Positions 10,640-59,318 of a stretch of 64,000 bases of DNA are shown here, piece by piece. Below the pieces are notes generated by a model. It did not search any database, was not told where the DNA came from, and saw nothing but the letters and a program-made list of their open reading frames with translations. Both the position numbers and the translations under genes were made by a program. The stretch's first letter is position 1; every line of letters begins with the position of its first letter. Origin of the DNA: Candidatus Euphemobacter frigidus. GTDB taxonomy: Bacteria; Auribacterota; Erginobacteria; Erginobacterales; Erginobacteraceae. Location: NCBI GenBank assembly GCA_030765805.1, contig JAVCDH010000017.1:2467-66466 (forward strand), written 5' to 3'.

Positions 10640-10900
10640 TTAAGCAACGGCGCCCGGAGTAATTGAGACGTGCTTCTTCCGGCCATGGCTCTCGAAGTTG
10701 ACAATGCCATCGATCAGGGCGAAGAGAGTATCATCCCGGCCCCGGCCGACATTCTTCCCGGGGAGAACCCGCGTACCCCTTTGCCGAATGATAATCGTCC
10801 CCCCCCGGATAAATTGCCCGGTGTTTCTTTTTACTCCCAGCCGTTTAGAATGGCTGTCTCTCCCGTTTCGGGAGCTTCCTTGTCCTGTTTTATGAGACAT
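10640..10900 (-). CDS. rpmA: 50S ribosomal protein L27
   Basis: Motifs GSSRNGRDS and RQRGT. Confidence 0.97.
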
Positions 10901-41225: not shown

Positions 41226-41337
41226 ACTTTAGTCACCCTCCTTCGCTATTACATAGCTACGGCGGGTAAACTTTAGTCACTTTAGCTCACTTTAGTCACT
41301 TTAGTTCACTTTAGTCACTTTAGTCACTTCACTTCAC
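41226..41337. repeat. ACTTTAG(T/C)TC tandem array with an embedded REP-like unit
   Basis: Contains the reverse complement of the right part of 52331-52468; the ribBA TGA stop is in the last unit. Confidence 0.85.
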
Positions 41338-42612: not shown

Positions 42613-42637
42613 AAACAAGATAATGCCACTGTAATCT

Positions 42638-42805
42638 AATCTTCTTCCATCCGGACTCTACCGTCGGCACCGGTCTTTCACCGGTTCATTCCTCCCCGCT
42701 CTTCTTCAAAAGCGACGGGTATAGTTCGCGGGCTTACGGAGAGGCCGGTTAATCCACGCTCCTCCGATCACCGCCGGTCGGGAATTTCACCCTGCCCCGA
42801 AGATT
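42638..42805 (-). ncRNA. FMN riboswitch (RFN element)
   Basis: Segments CTTCGGGGCAGGGTGAAATTCCCGACCGGCGGT, AGCCCGCGA and GCCGACGGTAGAGTCCGGATGGAAGAAG; upstream of ribBA. Confidence 0.95.
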
Positions 42806-42862
42806 ATGTAGATACTATGGTAGACTAAGTCTAAAAAAGCAAGTAAAATATAAGTGATTCCT

Positions 42863-49976: not shown

Positions 49977-50390
49977 TTAAAATTGACGCTCGTAATGCTC
50001 TTGGCTGAAAGAGTAAGGATCGCGCCTGATCCAGTACGAGTCGGCGTTCCGGTCGAACTTCCGGTCGAGGGGGTTTTTCCCAAGTAACCGCATAATGAGC
50101 CCGATTACTGTAAAACCAATATAAAATACCAGACTTAGAACAAGGGTTGTGACTAAAAATGCTATCGTACGGGTAATTACCATCCAGACCAGATAGATCG
50201 GCTTCAGAGAATAGAGAAAGATCAGGCCCCAAAGATAGAGAATAACGGCTATCCCGTAGAATACCAAGTTAAAGGTCATAAAGCCTTTAATCAAGCCGAA
50301 ACCGGTCGCGACCACGATCAAAGCAGCCGGAACAAACCGGGCAAAGGCCTGTAAGTCTTTCCTGGTCGGATTAAAATCGTAATCAATCAA
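49977..50390 (-). CDS. SxtJ-family membrane protein
   Basis: Motifs LKPIYLVWM, LLGKNPL and DSYWI; synteny. Confidence 0.85.
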   Translation of the reverse strand: MIDYDFNPTRKDLQAFARFVPAALIVVATGFGLIKGFMTFNLVFYGIAVILYLWGLIFLYSLKPIYLVWMVITRTIAFLVTTLVLSLVFYIGFTVIGLIMRLLGKNPLDRKFDRNADSYWIRRDPYSFSQEHYERQF

Positions 50391-52317
50391 GGGTAAACTC
50401 CTTCATCCAGTCGAACTCTTCCTTCCACTCCTTCTGCTTCTTCTTATCAAGGATATAATTCCCCAGCACCAGATAGTCCATCTTGGTCCGCATAAAACAG
50501 CGAAAGGCTTCCTCCGGGGTGCAGACGATCGGCTCCCCGCGCACGTTGAAGGAAGTGTTCACGATCACCGGGCAGCCGGTCATCTCGTCAAATTTCTTGA
50601 TGATATCGTAATAGAAAGGGTTGTCCTCCCGTTCCACCGTCTGGAGGCGGGCGGAATAATTCACATGGGTGATCGCGGGGACATCCGAACGAACCTGGTG
50701 GATAATAGTCCGGAAACGAAGATAGTCTTCATTCCCGATCATCTTCTCCACTTTTTCCGCGTCTTCTATCCGGTTGACTTCTCTCAGTTCCTGAACTTCT
50801 TTCCGGAGCCGTTCTTTCTGCTCCGCCAGCAATCCGTCAAGTTCATCGGGACCCGGCATCGGCTTTCTTCGCTCTTCCAGGACATCCGTCACCAGCAGCA
50901 TATAGGGACTGGCGTAATCGGTCTCAAAGAAGTCGGCTACCCGTTCCCGCAGGACAGCCGGGGCGAAGGGCCGGAATGATTCCCGGAACTTGATCTTCAG
51001 GTTCATGATCGACTGCATCTCGGGGGAACGGGCGTCGCCCAGGATGCTGCGCGCCCCCAGGGCGCGGGGCCCGAACTCCATCCTCCCCCGGTACAATCCG
51101 ATCACATTCTGGTCCAGGATCAGATCGGCCACTCTCTTGGACAATTCCTCATCCGGAACGTACTCATAATCGGCCTTGATCTCCTTGAGATACCGCTCGA
51201 TCTCATCGTTGGTAAACTCGGGCCCCAGGTAGGAGCCTTTTTGAAAGTCCTGGCCCGGCGTCACCCGGCGGGGGTTTTCCAGATACTGATACCAGACGAA
51301 GAGGGCCACGCCCAGGGCGCCTCCCGCGTCGCTGGCGGCGGGCTGGATCCAGATATCTTTGAATGGCCCTTCCCTGAGGAGACGGCCGTTGGCGACGCAG
51401 TTCAGCGCCACTCCACCGGCCAGGCAGAGATTCTCCATCCCGGTCTCTTGATGAATATGCCGGGCCATCTTGAGTAAGATCTCCTCGGTAACATCCTGGA
51501 CTGAACGGGCACAGTCCATGTAAAACTGGGTCATGGTCGCCTCGGGCTTCTGGGGAGGGGCTCCGAAGAGCCGGCTGAACTTCTTCCCTACCATCTTCAA
51601 GCCTACGGGATAATCAAAATAATCGACGTTGAGCTTGAAGGAGCCATCGTCCTTGATATCGATAAGATTGTCCTTGATCAGATCGACATACTTCGGTCTC
51701 CCGTATGGCGCCAACCCCATCAACTTGTACTCGCCGGAGTTGACCTTGAAGCCACAGTAGTAGGTAAAGGCGGCATACAAAAGCCCCAGGGAGTGGGGGA
51801 AGTAGATATCCGCCAGCAACTCCACCCGGTTATCCCGGCCAACCCCGTAGCTGGTGGTCGTCCACTCCCCTACCCCGTCAATGGTGAGAATGGCCGATTC
51901 CTGAAAGGGAGAGGGGAAGAAGGCGGACGCGGCGTGGGATTCATGATGCTCCGGGAATATGATCTTTCCTCGAAAGCCCAGTTCCTTGCTCAGTGTCTCG
52001 CGGATATGTATTTTCTGCTTGAGCCAGATCGGCATCGCCTGATGGAACGAACGGATACCCCGGGGGGCGTAGGAGAGGTAGGTCTCCAGAATTCGTTCAA
52101 ACTTCAAGAGGGGCTTATCATAAAAACCGACATACTCGACCTCATCCATGGTGATCCCGGCCTCCCGGAGACAGTAATCGATCGACTGGCGGGGAAAATC
52201 AAGGTCGTGTTTGACCCGGCTGAAGCGTTCCTCCTGGGCGGCGGCGATAATTTCTCCATCCTTAATCAGGGCGGCGGCGGCGTCATGATAGAAAGCTGAG
52301 ATACCGAGGATGTACAT
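50383..52317 (-). CDS. NodU/CmcH/SxtI-family O-carbamoyltransferase
   Basis: Motifs AFYHDAAAA, HHESHAASAF, EFGPRALGARS and NTSFNVRGEPIV. Confidence 0.95.
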   Translation of the reverse strand: MYILGISAFYHDAAAALIKDGEIIAAAQEERFSRVKHDLDFPRQSIDYCLREAGITMDEVEYVGFYDKPLLKFERILETYLSYAPRGIRSFHQAMPIWLKQKIHIRETLSKELGFRGKIIFPEHHESHAASAFFPSPFQESAILTIDGVGEWTTTSYGVGRDNRVELLADIYFPHSLGLLYAAFTYYCGFKVNSGEYKLMGLAPYGRPKYVDLIKDNLIDIKDDGSFKLNVDYFDYPVGLKMVGKKFSRLFGAPPQKPEATMTQFYMDCARSVQDVTEEILLKMARHIHQETGMENLCLAGGVALNCVANGRLLREGPFKDIWIQPAASDAGGALGVALFVWYQYLENPRRVTPGQDFQKGSYLGPEFTNDEIERYLKEIKADYEYVPDEELSKRVADLILDQNVIGLYRGRMEFGPRALGARSILGDARSPEMQSIMNLKIKFRESFRPFAPAVLRERVADFFETDYASPYMLLVTDVLEERRKPMPGPDELDGLLAEQKERLRKEVQELREVNRIEDAEKVEKMIGNEDYLRFRTIIHQVRSDVPAITHVNYSARLQTVEREDNPFYYDIIKKFDEMTGCPVIVNTSFNVRGEPIVCTPEEAFRCFMRTKMDYLVLGNYILDKKKQKEWKEEFDWMKEFTLD

Positions 52318-52330
52318 TTTTAAGTGCCTT

Positions 52331-52468
52331 AAGTGACTAAAGTGAACTTCCGCCTTCGCTAGCCTCCTTCGCCATAGTAGCCTATGGCTACGGCGGCTGA
52401 AAAGCTACGGCGGATAAAAAAGTTTACCCGCCGTAGCTATGTAATAGCGAAGGAGGGTGACTAAAGTT
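52331..52468. repeat. 138-bp composite of tandem repeats and nested REP-like palindromes, copy 1
   Basis: Differs from 54496-54633 at two positions. Confidence 0.92.
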
Positions 52469-52499
52469 AAATCAGCTCCCTTTTTATGAATGTTAAATT

Positions 52500-53693
52500 T
52501 TATTTCCGACGGGCTTTCAGGTTTTTTATCAACGCGGGGACAATCTCAAAGAGGTCCCCGATCAGCCCGTAGGTGGCCACTGTGAAGATCGGGGCGTCCG
52601 GATCCTTATTAATGGCTACGATCGTGTCGGAAGACTGCATGCCGACCAGATGCTGGATCGCCCCGGAGATTCCACAGGCGATATACATCTTAGGCTGGAC
52701 GGTCTTCCCGGTCTGACCTACCTGGTGCGAATAAGGGATCCAGCCGGCGTCCACCGCGGCCCGGGAAGCGCCGACCGCTCCTTCCAGAAGGTCCGCCAGC
52801 TCCTGGAGAAGGGCGTAATTCTCCGGTCCTTTCATCCCCCGCCCCCCTGAAATGATGATATCGGCCTCGGCGATATTGACGGCATATCCCAGCTCTTCTA
52901 CCGATTCCAAAAACCGGGTTCGGGAAACGCATTCCTCCGGTTTAACCTCAACCCGGATAATCTCACCCCGGCGGTCCGGATCCGGGGTTGCTTCCTTCAT
53001 CACTTTATGGCGGACGGTAGCCATCTGAGGGCGATAATCTTCACAGATAATAGTCGCCATGATATTGCCCCCGAAAGCCGGACGGGTCTGGAGCAAGAGA
53101 CCACGCTCCTCATCGATAGCCAGGCCGGTGCAGTCCGCGGTCAATCCGGTCTTGATCTCAGCCGCTACCCGGGGGATGAGAGAACGCCCGATAGAGGTTG
53201 CTCCGGTCAGCACAATCTCCGGCTTATGTTCTCGGATCAGACGGGAGATAATCCGGGAGTACGGCTCGTCGAGAAAATCGGCGAGGCTCGCGGACTCCAC
53301 CAGGAAGACTTTATCAGCGCCCCGCGCGAAAAGACCGGGCACCTCCTTCTCCACATCGTTCCCGATCAGGACCGCGGAGAGTTCAACGCCTTTTACATCG
53401 GCCAATTGCCGACCCGCGCCCAGGAGTTCAAAGGTCACGGACTGGATCTTTCCCTTCTTCTGTTCAGCGCAGACCCAGACCCCTTGGTAGGTATCGAGTT
53501 CATCTTCGGCGTGGTGCTCCTTCCGCAAAATGATGGCCCCGAATTTGCAGGCTTCCACACACGCCCCGCACAACGTGCAGGCATCATGATCGATGACCGC
53601 CAGGCCGTCCTGCATCTCGATGGCCCCGTAAGGGCATGACCTAACGCAGATCGAACAACCGACGCATTTCTGTTTTATTATTTCAATCGGCAT
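52500..53693 (-). CDS. etfA: Electron transfer flavoprotein alpha with an N-terminal 2[4Fe-4S] ferredoxin domain
   Basis: Two CxxCxxCxxxC motifs, plus GLTADCT, QVGQTG and GISGAIQH. Confidence 0.94.
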
Positions 53694-54489: not shown

Positions 54490-54495
54490 GAAAAA

Positions 54496-54633
54496 AAGTG
54501 ACTAAAGTGAGCTTCCGCCTTCGCTAGCCTCCTTCGCCAAAGTAGCCTATGGCTACGGCGGCTGAAAAGCTACGGCGGATAAAAAAGTTTACCCGCCGTA
54601 GCTATGTAATAGCGAAGGAGGGTGACTAAAGTT
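54496..54633. repeat. 138-bp composite repeat, copy 2
   Basis: Direct repeat of 52331-52468; abuts the acyl-CoA dehydrogenase stop. Confidence 0.92.
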
Positions 54634-59090: not shown

Positions 59091-59318
59091 TTGAAGTGCC
59101 TAAAGTGTGCTGCCGACTTCGCCAAAGTAGCCTCAGGCTACGACGGCTGAAAAAGTGACTAAAGTTAAATTACCTCATTGTGACGCTCTGTGTCGAATGT
59201 TGAACGTTGGACGTTGAAAGTTGAGCGTTGAACGTTCATCCCTTCCAACTTTAGTCACTTTAGTTCACTTTAGTCACTTTAGTCACTTTAGTTCACTTTA
59301 GCTCACTTTAGACACTTC
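59091..59318. repeat. Composite intergenic element: AAGTG arm with REP unit, GTTGAAC array, inverted ACTTTAGTC array
   Basis: 59109-59158 is identical to 1379-1428; heptamers at 59192-59239; array at 59247-59318. Confidence 0.87.

Follow-up and report, generated by a model that had tools for sequence, protein, structure and literature searches.

The closest described relatives of the elements studied here are repetitive extragenic palindromic (REP) sequences, their mosaics (bacterial interspersed mosaic elements, BIMEs) and their inverted doublets (REPINs), which occur together with REP-associated tyrosine transposases (RAYT, also TnpA-REP; PMC2817692, PMC3116915, PMC3333891). Among the cases described in the text of Di Nocera et al. 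2013 (PMC3733652) are REP dimers inside longer palindromes in A. variabilis, T. roseum and H. neapolitanus as well as REPs that lie in frame inside replication and repair genes. Insertion sequence (IS) elements with REPs as their targets have been described as well (PMC1525189). Here, we analyse a stretch of 64,000 nt from Candidatus Euphemobacter frigidus (the window; C6:2467-66466 of assembly G000, which comprises 2.26 Mb in 116 contigs and is 94.7% complete). Its 182-bp spacer 52318-52499 holds three hairpin units, i.e., an outer unit B that is split by an insert A, followed by an inverted unit C. We refer to the host genome as G000, to other genomes by further G numbers and to individual loci by L numbers. 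With a probability of roughly 70%, we consider these elements to be REP-like mobile hairpins that are moved via single-stranded DNA (ssDNA) by a trans-acting enzyme, and the spacer probably combines, in mosaic form, three units from a single family of very small REP-like mobile elements.

A, B and C resemble the REP systems in several respects. They are short, GC-rich, imperfect palindromes with many, mostly intergenic copies; as in BIMEs, they form mosaics of alternating orientation with conserved linkers, and as in REPINs, an inverted doublet (B+C) folds into one long hairpin. Several subtypes are present per genome, and the genome encodes RAYT-like genes. On the other hand, A/B/C flank no RAYT gene, and the GT(A/G)G head that REPs carry 5' of the palindrome has no such position here: GTAG is present on the complementary strand (CCGCC-GTAG-CC) inside the stem, where it forms a conserved internal loop. 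While REPIN-RAYT systems are lineage-specific and vertically inherited, the 30-nt unit to which B and C appear to belong (see below) is nearly invariant across phyla and is found in viral contigs. Furthermore, singlets outnumber doublets, unlike in REPINs, and in contrast to REPs the units are linked with short tandem arrays, and same-family members nest in each other with empty sites preserved. The REPs of Di Nocera et al. 2013 share with A/B/C that they are lodged in palindromes and in frame in genes; compared to the cases given in the text there, the palindrome that is entered here itself belongs to the mobile family, it also exists in empty copies, and nesting extends across phyla. The family core strings were not found in the text supplements of PMC3733652 (a comparison of text, not of figures), and the 17-nt core strings were not found in the literature searched. 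Overall, A/B/C are best regarded as a novel variation on REP-like mobile hairpins whose distribution is wider than expected.

The composite spacer and its units in the host genome

The original prediction had read positions 52350-52460 as nested palindromes, and the composite can indeed be read directly at 52350-52456. On the plus strand, an array of three AAGTG-type units (AAGTGCCT TAAGTGACT AAAGTGAACTT, 52322-52349) is followed by the left arm of B (CCGCCTTCGCTA, 52350-52361), which forms the outer shell of the nest, by the 40-nt inner hairpin A2 (GCCTCCTTCGCCATAGTAGCCTATGGCTACGGCGGCTGAA, 52362-52401, boundary +/- 1 nt) within the CTAAAG loop of B, and by the right arm of B (AAGCTACGGCGG, 52402-52413); array and arms were read directly. 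A 14-nt linker (ATAAAAAAGTTTAC, 52414-52427) leads to unit C on the minus strand (52428-52456), which is inverted relative to B and reads CCGCCGTAGCTATGTAATAGCGAAGGAGG on the plus and CCTCCTTCGCTATTACATAGCTACGGCGG on the minus strand. The array remnant GTGACTAAAGTT at 52457-52468 (plus strand) is constant in 4/4 B+C composites.

All three units have a common hairpin base, i.e., CC(K)CC, a T.C mismatch, a T-A pair, a C.T mismatch and GC, and differ in their apex. The 40 nt of A comprise an extra apical stem GTAGCC-loop-GGCTAC, the motif CGCCA and a CTGAA tail. B and the inverted C are predicted to pair as a REPIN-like doublet, i.e., to fold as a single long hairpin (DNA free energy -24.9 kcal/mol) with the linker as its loop. 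Including A, the predicted fold of the composite is a three-way junction with an RNA free energy of -57 to -63 kcal/mol, and for the spacers in mRNA sense we predict -62 to -72 kcal/mol.

That the units occur independently and insert into each other, as also proposed in the original prediction, is supported by a catalogue of units and junctions. Excising exactly the 40 nt of A gives back B (CGCTA|AAGC), and doublets of B and inverted C that lack A exist at C44:3916 and C25:10537 (empty site), sharing flanks, linker and arms with the composites of the window. The B+C doublet occurs four times with 98-99% identity; ten C and four A singlets are conserved equally well. Intact B (CCGCCTTCGCTAAAGCTACGGCGG) is present at C28:2620, C44:3916 and C25:10581, standing alone at the first of these sites, and degenerate copies are found at C51 and C89. 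Unit C has 13 copies genome-wide, about ten of them alone and all in the same orientation relative to arrays. One of the lone copies is the third unit expected at about 41237, which we locate at 41237-41265 (plus strand) inside an CACTTTAG-sense array.

For unit A, we observe two subtypes that differ at about five positions. A1 (CCGAC...GACGG) is found at four sites, always alone, while A2 (CCTCC...GGCGG) is found in both nests of the window and once in a GC-rich palindromic cluster (C46:3519), where it is adjoined by CCTGCCGGCAGG (C46:3583), a relative of the palindrome CCTGCCTGCCGGCAGGCAGG discussed below. The solitary inner units that had been placed at 1379 and 59109 are identical A1 copies (GCCGACTTCGCCAAAGTAGCCTCAGGCTACGACGGCTGAA) at 1382-1421 and 59112-59151 (both plus strand), the former between array units at CT^AAAG. 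The same holds for all four solitary A1 copies (boundaries GCC...CTGAA), i.e., they sit at CT^AAAG and their removal restores the array exactly. All seven A copies of the genome are preceded by (G/A)CT or GCTA, six of them in the CTAAAG context, a hexamer common to the B loop CGCTAAAGC and the array repeat GACTAAAGTG.

In the host genome, the family pattern has 24 matches (none for the reversed control). All copies are extragenic, i.e., located in spacers, and their orientation relative to flanking genes is mixed. Arrays of the AAGTG type are present in about 60 spacers of the genome. With regard to the AAGTGACT arrays, it is type-specific for 24/24 array-embedded units: A and B are forward in AAGTG sense (11/11), C is forward in CACTT sense (13/13). 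Within the window, the arm motifs are enriched with 14 matches vs. 1.8 expected and 16 vs. 3.6, values that none of 100 shuffles reaches.

A second entire composite, which the original prediction does not mention, is present at 54515-54621 (plus strand) in the acd-etfB spacer of the acd-etfB-etfA operon. It consists of the left arm of B (54515-54526), A2 (54527-54566), the right arm of B (54567-54578), the linker (54579-54592) and the inverted C (54593-54621), and its left flank array (54494-54514, plus strand) reaches the start codon of etfB (54489). Compared to the first composite, there is one internal mismatch (A at 54540, T at 52375) and another one in the flanking array. On either side of the first spacer lie minus-strand genes whose names follow their Pfam labels, namely etfA (52500-53693) and, at 50383-52317, a carbamoyltransferase-like gene of 644 aa. 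Composites plus array flanks form 138-bp near-identical direct repeats (52331-52468 and 54496-54633) that bracket exactly etfB-etfA. Such repeats are a substrate for deletion or duplication, which would make etfBA prone to recombinational loss, and they place a strong RNA fold on either side of etfB-etfA.

Contigs with identical EtfB from eight independent samples and assemblers (ENA, JGI and Logan assemblies) match both spacers letter for letter, such that the nest is fixed and no assembly artefact. Three of these eight contigs end within the acd-etfB spacer, two of them within the repeat composite. A metagenome scan for further alleles returned relatives at no more than 75% identity, with 0 family hairpins in 329 kb.

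Within the taxonomic family, the pattern is present in 9/9 genomes (four genera) compared to 1/70 other genomes of the phylum, with a reversed control of 0. A-type units are found in all four genera, where the CAGCC...GGCTGAA frame and the GTAGCC-loop-GGCTAC apex are kept and the surrounding short tandem arrays are of other types (GGAATTT and TGGAGTA). The operon acd-etfB-etfA plus downstream gene is syntenic in all relatives. Since its spacers are packed with lineage-specific array foldbacks throughout, we consider them hypervariable repeat sinks and the composite of the host genome lineage-specific. As a side observation, array units in CACTTTAG sense abut the start codons of etfB (54490-54514) and of the downstream gene (52318-52349), where no Shine-Dalgarno sequence is present, and similar arrays are found upstream of the orthologue of the downstream gene in most genera of the family (L026-L033); the arrays may serve as translation-initiation leaders.

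Distribution and replication orientation of the 30-nt unit

We scanned species-genome and viral collections for the arm core and obtained at least 243 matches. Among the matches listed, 86/243 have the B core with loop AA (20 nt), viral contigs are included, and an alignment of 77 distinct copies is conserved from -5 to +24 while the information content outside is zero. The alignment defines a 30-nt unit, YCCKC-CTTCGCYAARGCTACGGCGG-RCARG, of which B and C are, going by their sequence, local forms. No target motif is seen in the flanks of these cross-phylum B copies within the 77-copy alignment.

The stem shows covariation. Its first pair is C-G in 51 and T-A in 24 copies with 2 exceptions; its second is T-A in 39, C-G in 23, A-T in 3 and G-C in 2. 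If the search pattern leaves the internal loop unconstrained, the sub-families TTC/TAC, GTC/TAT, TTC/TTC and TAC/TTC emerge within one genome: the outer two positions of the loop are never Watson-Crick, and its middle pair alternates between T-A and A-T. We count 96, 76, 65, 53 and 47 copies per genome in five unrelated genomes (control 0).

According to record titles, hosts comprise Acidobacteriota, Verrucomicrobiota, Opitutales, Kiritimatiellia, Bacteroidota, Nitrospiraceae, Bdellovibrionota, Omnitrophota, Actinomycetota, delta- and alpha-proteobacteria, five Patescibacteria lineages and one metagenome-assembled genome (MAG) of Bathyarchaeota. An all-against-all comparison of open reading frames (ORFs) around 79 cross-phylum copies revealed no shared neighbour gene. 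A-type units are found beyond the phylum as well, again in short tandem arrays, namely in a gammaproteobacterial and a deltaproteobacterial MAG and in three viral contigs, with two copies of A in tandem in one of them. REP-type repeats are generally regarded as bound to a lineage, in which they depend on a resident transposase as their partner. In contrast, the 30-nt hairpin is nearly unchanged in Auribacterota, Verrucomicrobiota, Acidobacteriota, Bacteroidota, Patescibacteria and phage contigs.

Many copies of the 30-nt unit fall in long ORFs. In AT-rich Patescibacteria, the 30 nt read in frame as P-S/A-F-A-K-A-T-A-G-K, and PSFAKATAGK or a close variant is present in ValS (valyl-tRNA synthetase), LigA (NAD-dependent DNA ligase), HsdM (type I methylase) and the DnaE N-terminus in four Patescibacteria lineages (L224, L251, L214, L263). 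Most Rickettsia palindromic elements (RPEs) measure 100-150 bp and are restricted to one genus, unlike this unit. They are alike in being palindromic repeats that lie in frame in essential genes (see also PMC3733652).

Nesting is not confined to the window. In G021 (L049, C56), an IS200-like Y1 gene is flanked by a distinct hairpin H (CCTGCCGG-loop-CCGGCAGG); the H copy 320 nt downstream of the gene has a B unit in its loop and adjoins two empty H copies. A second such nest, i.e., B within H, is found in L018, and at C2:56270 of the host genome a different hairpin lies inside H. In a Verrucomicrobia MAG (L260, 5437-5476), a 20-nt perfect palindrome occupies the B loop, CTTCGCCAAG[CCTGCCTGCCGGCAGGCAGG]GCTACGGCGG, and in the Bathyarchaeota MAG the B loop holds a family-like hairpin.

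A filled/empty pair is provided by G106, where three tandem small GIY-YIG genes are located at C1 ~5,890,400-5,891,800 (L475). The duplicated regions upstream of these genes differ by exactly TCCGCCTCCGGTACTACGGCGGACAAG, a 27-nt insert between GAGACT and ACGG upstream of the third gene, and show no target duplication. Between two of the three genes, there is also a B-type hairpin accompanied by partial copies in tandem.

G106 is also a complete chromosome (6.13 Mb, 65 copies), which allows for relating hairpin orientation to replication. In samples taken along the chromosome, GC skew is below zero between about 0.25 and 2.99 Mb and above zero in the remainder, with the minimum of the cumulative skew at about 2.99 Mb (contiguous 280-kb stretch). 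Hairpin orientation switches between 2,976,456 (minus) and 2,989,778 (plus), i.e., at the GC-skew origin. For 46/65 copies, the forward strand is the G-rich strand and thereby the lagging-strand template; we estimate p ~0.001 against 0.5 and ~0.03 against a 58% null. Cruder boundaries result in 42-44/65 (p = 0.006-0.025). The crude strand bias of ORFs is merely 52-58%, such that transcription orientation alone cannot yield the hairpin bias.

Proposed route of movement and candidate enzymes

Given these observations, a single-strand hairpin mechanism is supported in kind by stem mismatches, covariation, precise insertion without duplication, and replichore bias. The elements would fold as imperfect hairpins on one strand while single-stranded on the lagging-strand template, and a structure-specific trans-acting enzyme would cut and rejoin them without target duplication. 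They would land preferentially in exposed loops and short tandem arrays, and now and then in coding DNA. For the window, this suggests that the doublet of B and inverted C, folding as a long hairpin, spread to four spacers, and that one of these copies received a precise insertion of A in the apical loop of B, within CTAAAG. A may have landed there because the tip of B resembles its usual target, the CTAAAG common to the AAGTGACT arrays. The composite and about 30 nt of flanking array would then have been copied into another spacer of this operon at a distance of 2.1 kb. As a side effect, the composite in the operon mRNA would form a very stable three-way junction, which could alter transcript processing. 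If true, movement of such units sets a lower size limit for mobile DNA, offers a concrete substrate for finding the responsible ssDNA enzyme and possibly a sequence- and structure-specific ssDNA tool, and explains in part the mosaic, repeat-packed spacers that fragment metagenome assemblies.

Several observations weigh against this interpretation. B and C share arms yet face opposite ways in arrays, which is not what a single strand-specific targeting rule predicts, and the target of A shifts by 1 nt, i.e., CT^AAAG in arrays vs. CTA^AAG in B. The two nests of the window are copies of one insertion event. With regard to present-day movement, no A-less allele or presence-absence polymorphism is seen at either spacer in the eight assemblies. 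The replichore bias is moderate and rests on one chromosome (G106); in the host genome, with its small numbers and shared contigs, orientation shows no clear relation to GC skew. Concerning the enzyme, no candidate gene is flanked by family hairpins in the host genome or in G081, the genome with the highest copy number, and Y1 genes are present in 66/79 genomes of the phylum, i.e., their presence does not discriminate and a phyletic correlation is uninformative.

More tentatively, and with the odds somewhat against it, the 30-nt hairpin, A and the sister palindromes could constitute a pan-bacterial, phage-borne superfamily. Its members would be the smallest known transposable units, moved in trans through ssDNA; their targets would be exposed loops (those of fellow members included), short tandem arrays and, in multiples of three, coding DNA. 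If so, this would explain why hairpins co-occur with 7-10-nt tandem arrays in the spacers of many phyla.

Candidate enzymes for the proposed route are Y1 HUH (RAYT/IS200-like) transposases and small GIY-YIG (Ssn-like) nucleases. IS200/IS605 elements and their cargo-less derivatives ('peel and paste') share with A/B/C the recognition of imperfect hairpins on a single strand, precise insertion without target duplication and an orientation bias towards the lagging-strand template. They differ in that two different hairpins bracket a gene, whereas here a single 30-40-nt hairpin is the whole unit, and in that insertion takes place 3' of a fixed 4-5-nt target, whereas the A junction varies by 1 nt. 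Miniature inverted-repeat transposable elements (MITEs), which carry the terminal inverted repeats of a parent IS, cause target-site duplication and measure 70-300 bp, are a poor match, given units of 30-40 nt without duplication; no parent IS was found for the A/B/C units.

The original prediction attributed the units to HUH/RAYT-like transposition and suggested a search for RAYT/IS200-like or GIY-YIG genes flanked by the same hairpins. Of this, the hairpin-ssDNA mechanism is supported in kind; the search found no such gene in the host genome. Its four Y1 genes (C33, C53, C96, C19) are all located outside the window, and their proteins have REP_Tyr_transpos as best NCBIfam match with 57-75 bits, below the cut-off of 80. 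None of them is flanked by A/B/C hairpins; other inverted repeats or hairpins are found instead. The 176-aa RAYT-like gene at C19:8301-8962 is flanked by its own hairpins (GGAGTGCG(C/G)(A/T)AGCTTGC...), which are also found at other places of the genome as about ten inverted doublets with a spacing of 46 nt, i.e., a canonical-looking REPIN/RAYT system distinct from the A/B/C family. C33:10608-11683 and C53:13653-14750 encode Y1 proteins of about 335 aa with a DnaA-like C-terminal domain and lie between 24-31-bp perfect terminal inverted repeats, of which that of C33 recurs on C2 and C16; by analogy, this is the TIRYT-type arrangement of PMC3733652. The Y1 gene of C96 has its own hairpins. Beside these, a further family variant is found at C50:10369-10406 and 10750-10787 with apex CCATTCGACAAGCTCAGGGC (reads FDKLRA) and arms CCTCCTTCGCCC...GGGCTTCGGCGGG; it is preceded by the 12-mer GATCAGGGTCAC, which also begins the inverted repeat of the C53 Y1 gene.

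Among 30 Y1 loci in relatives, a family unit is present within about 300 nt only at G021:C56 (L049) and G018:C62 (L046), without bracketing the gene. Both loci hold an IS200-like Y1 gene that is considerably extended at its N-terminus and has ACTGATTCACCTGCCGG-loop-CCGGCAGGGGTCTT hairpins on its flanks; the gene of G018 is interrupted by a stop codon. The G021 orthologue is absent from the host genome, which retains 3-4 of the ACTGATTCACCTGCCGG-loop-CCGGCAGGGGTCTT hairpins. The attribution to HUH/RAYT enzymes, drawn by analogy, is no more than plausible.

An alternative differs in the enzyme only, i.e., the elements are mobile but served by a small stand-alone GIY-YIG (Ssn-like) ssDNA nuclease instead of an HUH/RAYT transposase. 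We consider this less likely than not; as candidates, small GIY-YIG nucleases stand on a par with RAYT/HUH transposases. Its model is the pairing of Ssn enzymes, which are single-strand nucleases of the GIY-YIG type, with NTS/SRM hairpin repeats (Chenal et al. 2025, PMC11893778), an established association in which the repeats resemble A/B/C as dispersed hairpins of about 30 nt with asymmetric flanks in many phyla. These repeats are cut as ssDNA by a small trans-acting enzyme (PMC11893778), which we count as a likeness to the route proposed for A/B/C. Their sequence is unrelated, with an SRM consensus of CGTCATTCCC...GGGAATC and likewise no resemblance to NTS, and Ssn genes, which are GIY-YIG genes of the cd10448 type, are usually flanked by repeats, which is not observed here; Ssn enzymes are not known to move repeats, and a nuclease by itself leaves the precise rejoining unexplained. 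The location of the B-type unit between tandem GIY-YIG genes in G106, with the filled/empty insertion just upstream of one, fits this alternative, as do small GIY-YIG ORFs in 8/8 high-copy genomes and in 9/9 genomes of the taxonomic family, including a 72-aa ORF in the host genome (C23:9614-9832). On the other hand, the 1.5 kb on either side of the small GIY-YIG genes in the host genome, its relatives and G081 contain no family hairpin. In the eight high-copy genomes, both Y1 and GIY-YIG classes are present, and hairpin proximity within 1.5 kb is barely above chance for either.

Other candidates were rejected. DUF559 and GIY-YIG genes of the taxonomic family have no flanking family hairpins. 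At C72:7329-9000, a rimO-like gene lies between inverted arrays (15 CACTTTAG units and 4 AAGTG units), each with a C unit; as an enzyme candidate bracketed by inverted C (C72:7346/8934) it was discarded, being a RimO-like housekeeping gene in an ftsK-pgsA cluster. A separate observation concerns L086 (G019:C23, 1330-2270), where a tRNA-Met-like gene harbours a GIY-YIG gene of 97 aa; around the latter are the 5' fragment of the tRNA, hairpin repeats and multiple copies of the tRNA 3' end.

Possible functional elements and possible local rearrangement

In place of mobility, the hairpins could be functional intercistronic RNA or DNA elements, i.e., mRNA stabilisers, processing sites, terminators or protein-binding sites, that selection maintains and that recombination or gene conversion, not transposition, carries from spacer to spacer, with the nest as a recombinant of two modules. 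This is improbable in our view, even though effects of REPs at the level of RNA are documented (PMC3733652). Both composites are located within one operon of co-directional genes, where the strong predicted fold of the transcript is in agreement with such a role; the operon spacers of all relatives carry other foldback repeats, and the nest is fixed in the population. However, a functional role leaves unexplained why near-identical 30-nt copies are present in unrelated phyla, in viral contigs and in frame in ValS, LigA and HsdM. The same applies to the sharp 30-nt boundary, the precise filled/empty pair and the orientation flip at the origin, and the mixed orientation relative to flanking genes in the host genome also speaks against it. 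Furthermore, Rfam has no match: no family reaches gathering thresholds at the hairpins in a scan of the whole window, and a permissive scan of 52250-52560 gave a single chance match (E=0.48).

Formation of the nest by palindrome-driven template switching or local arm duplication instead of insertion of a separate unit is hardly credible, since, for all the similarity of inner and outer arms (CCGCCTTCGCTA vs. CCTCCTTCGCCA) and the partial tandem arm duplications in L223, L304 and G106, the inner unit has the A-specific CGCCA, apex and CTGAA tail also seen in the A2-type copies of G018, G019 and G023, the outer unit equals intact B of G000 and G021 letter for letter, and removal of exactly 40 nt restores B.

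A tRNA origin (tRNA mimicry or a remnant of a tRNA end), prompted by a tRNA 3' end of G019 (CCCTCCTCCGCTA) that resembles the left arm, was dropped: tRNA ends of the host genome match no better than a generic GTAGCT, and the covariation favours the long hairpin, not a D-arm-like fold. Apart from the hairpins, the Rfam scan at gathering thresholds, which covered the whole window, places an FMN riboswitch at 42635-42808 (minus strand) with 103.8 bits, well over its threshold.

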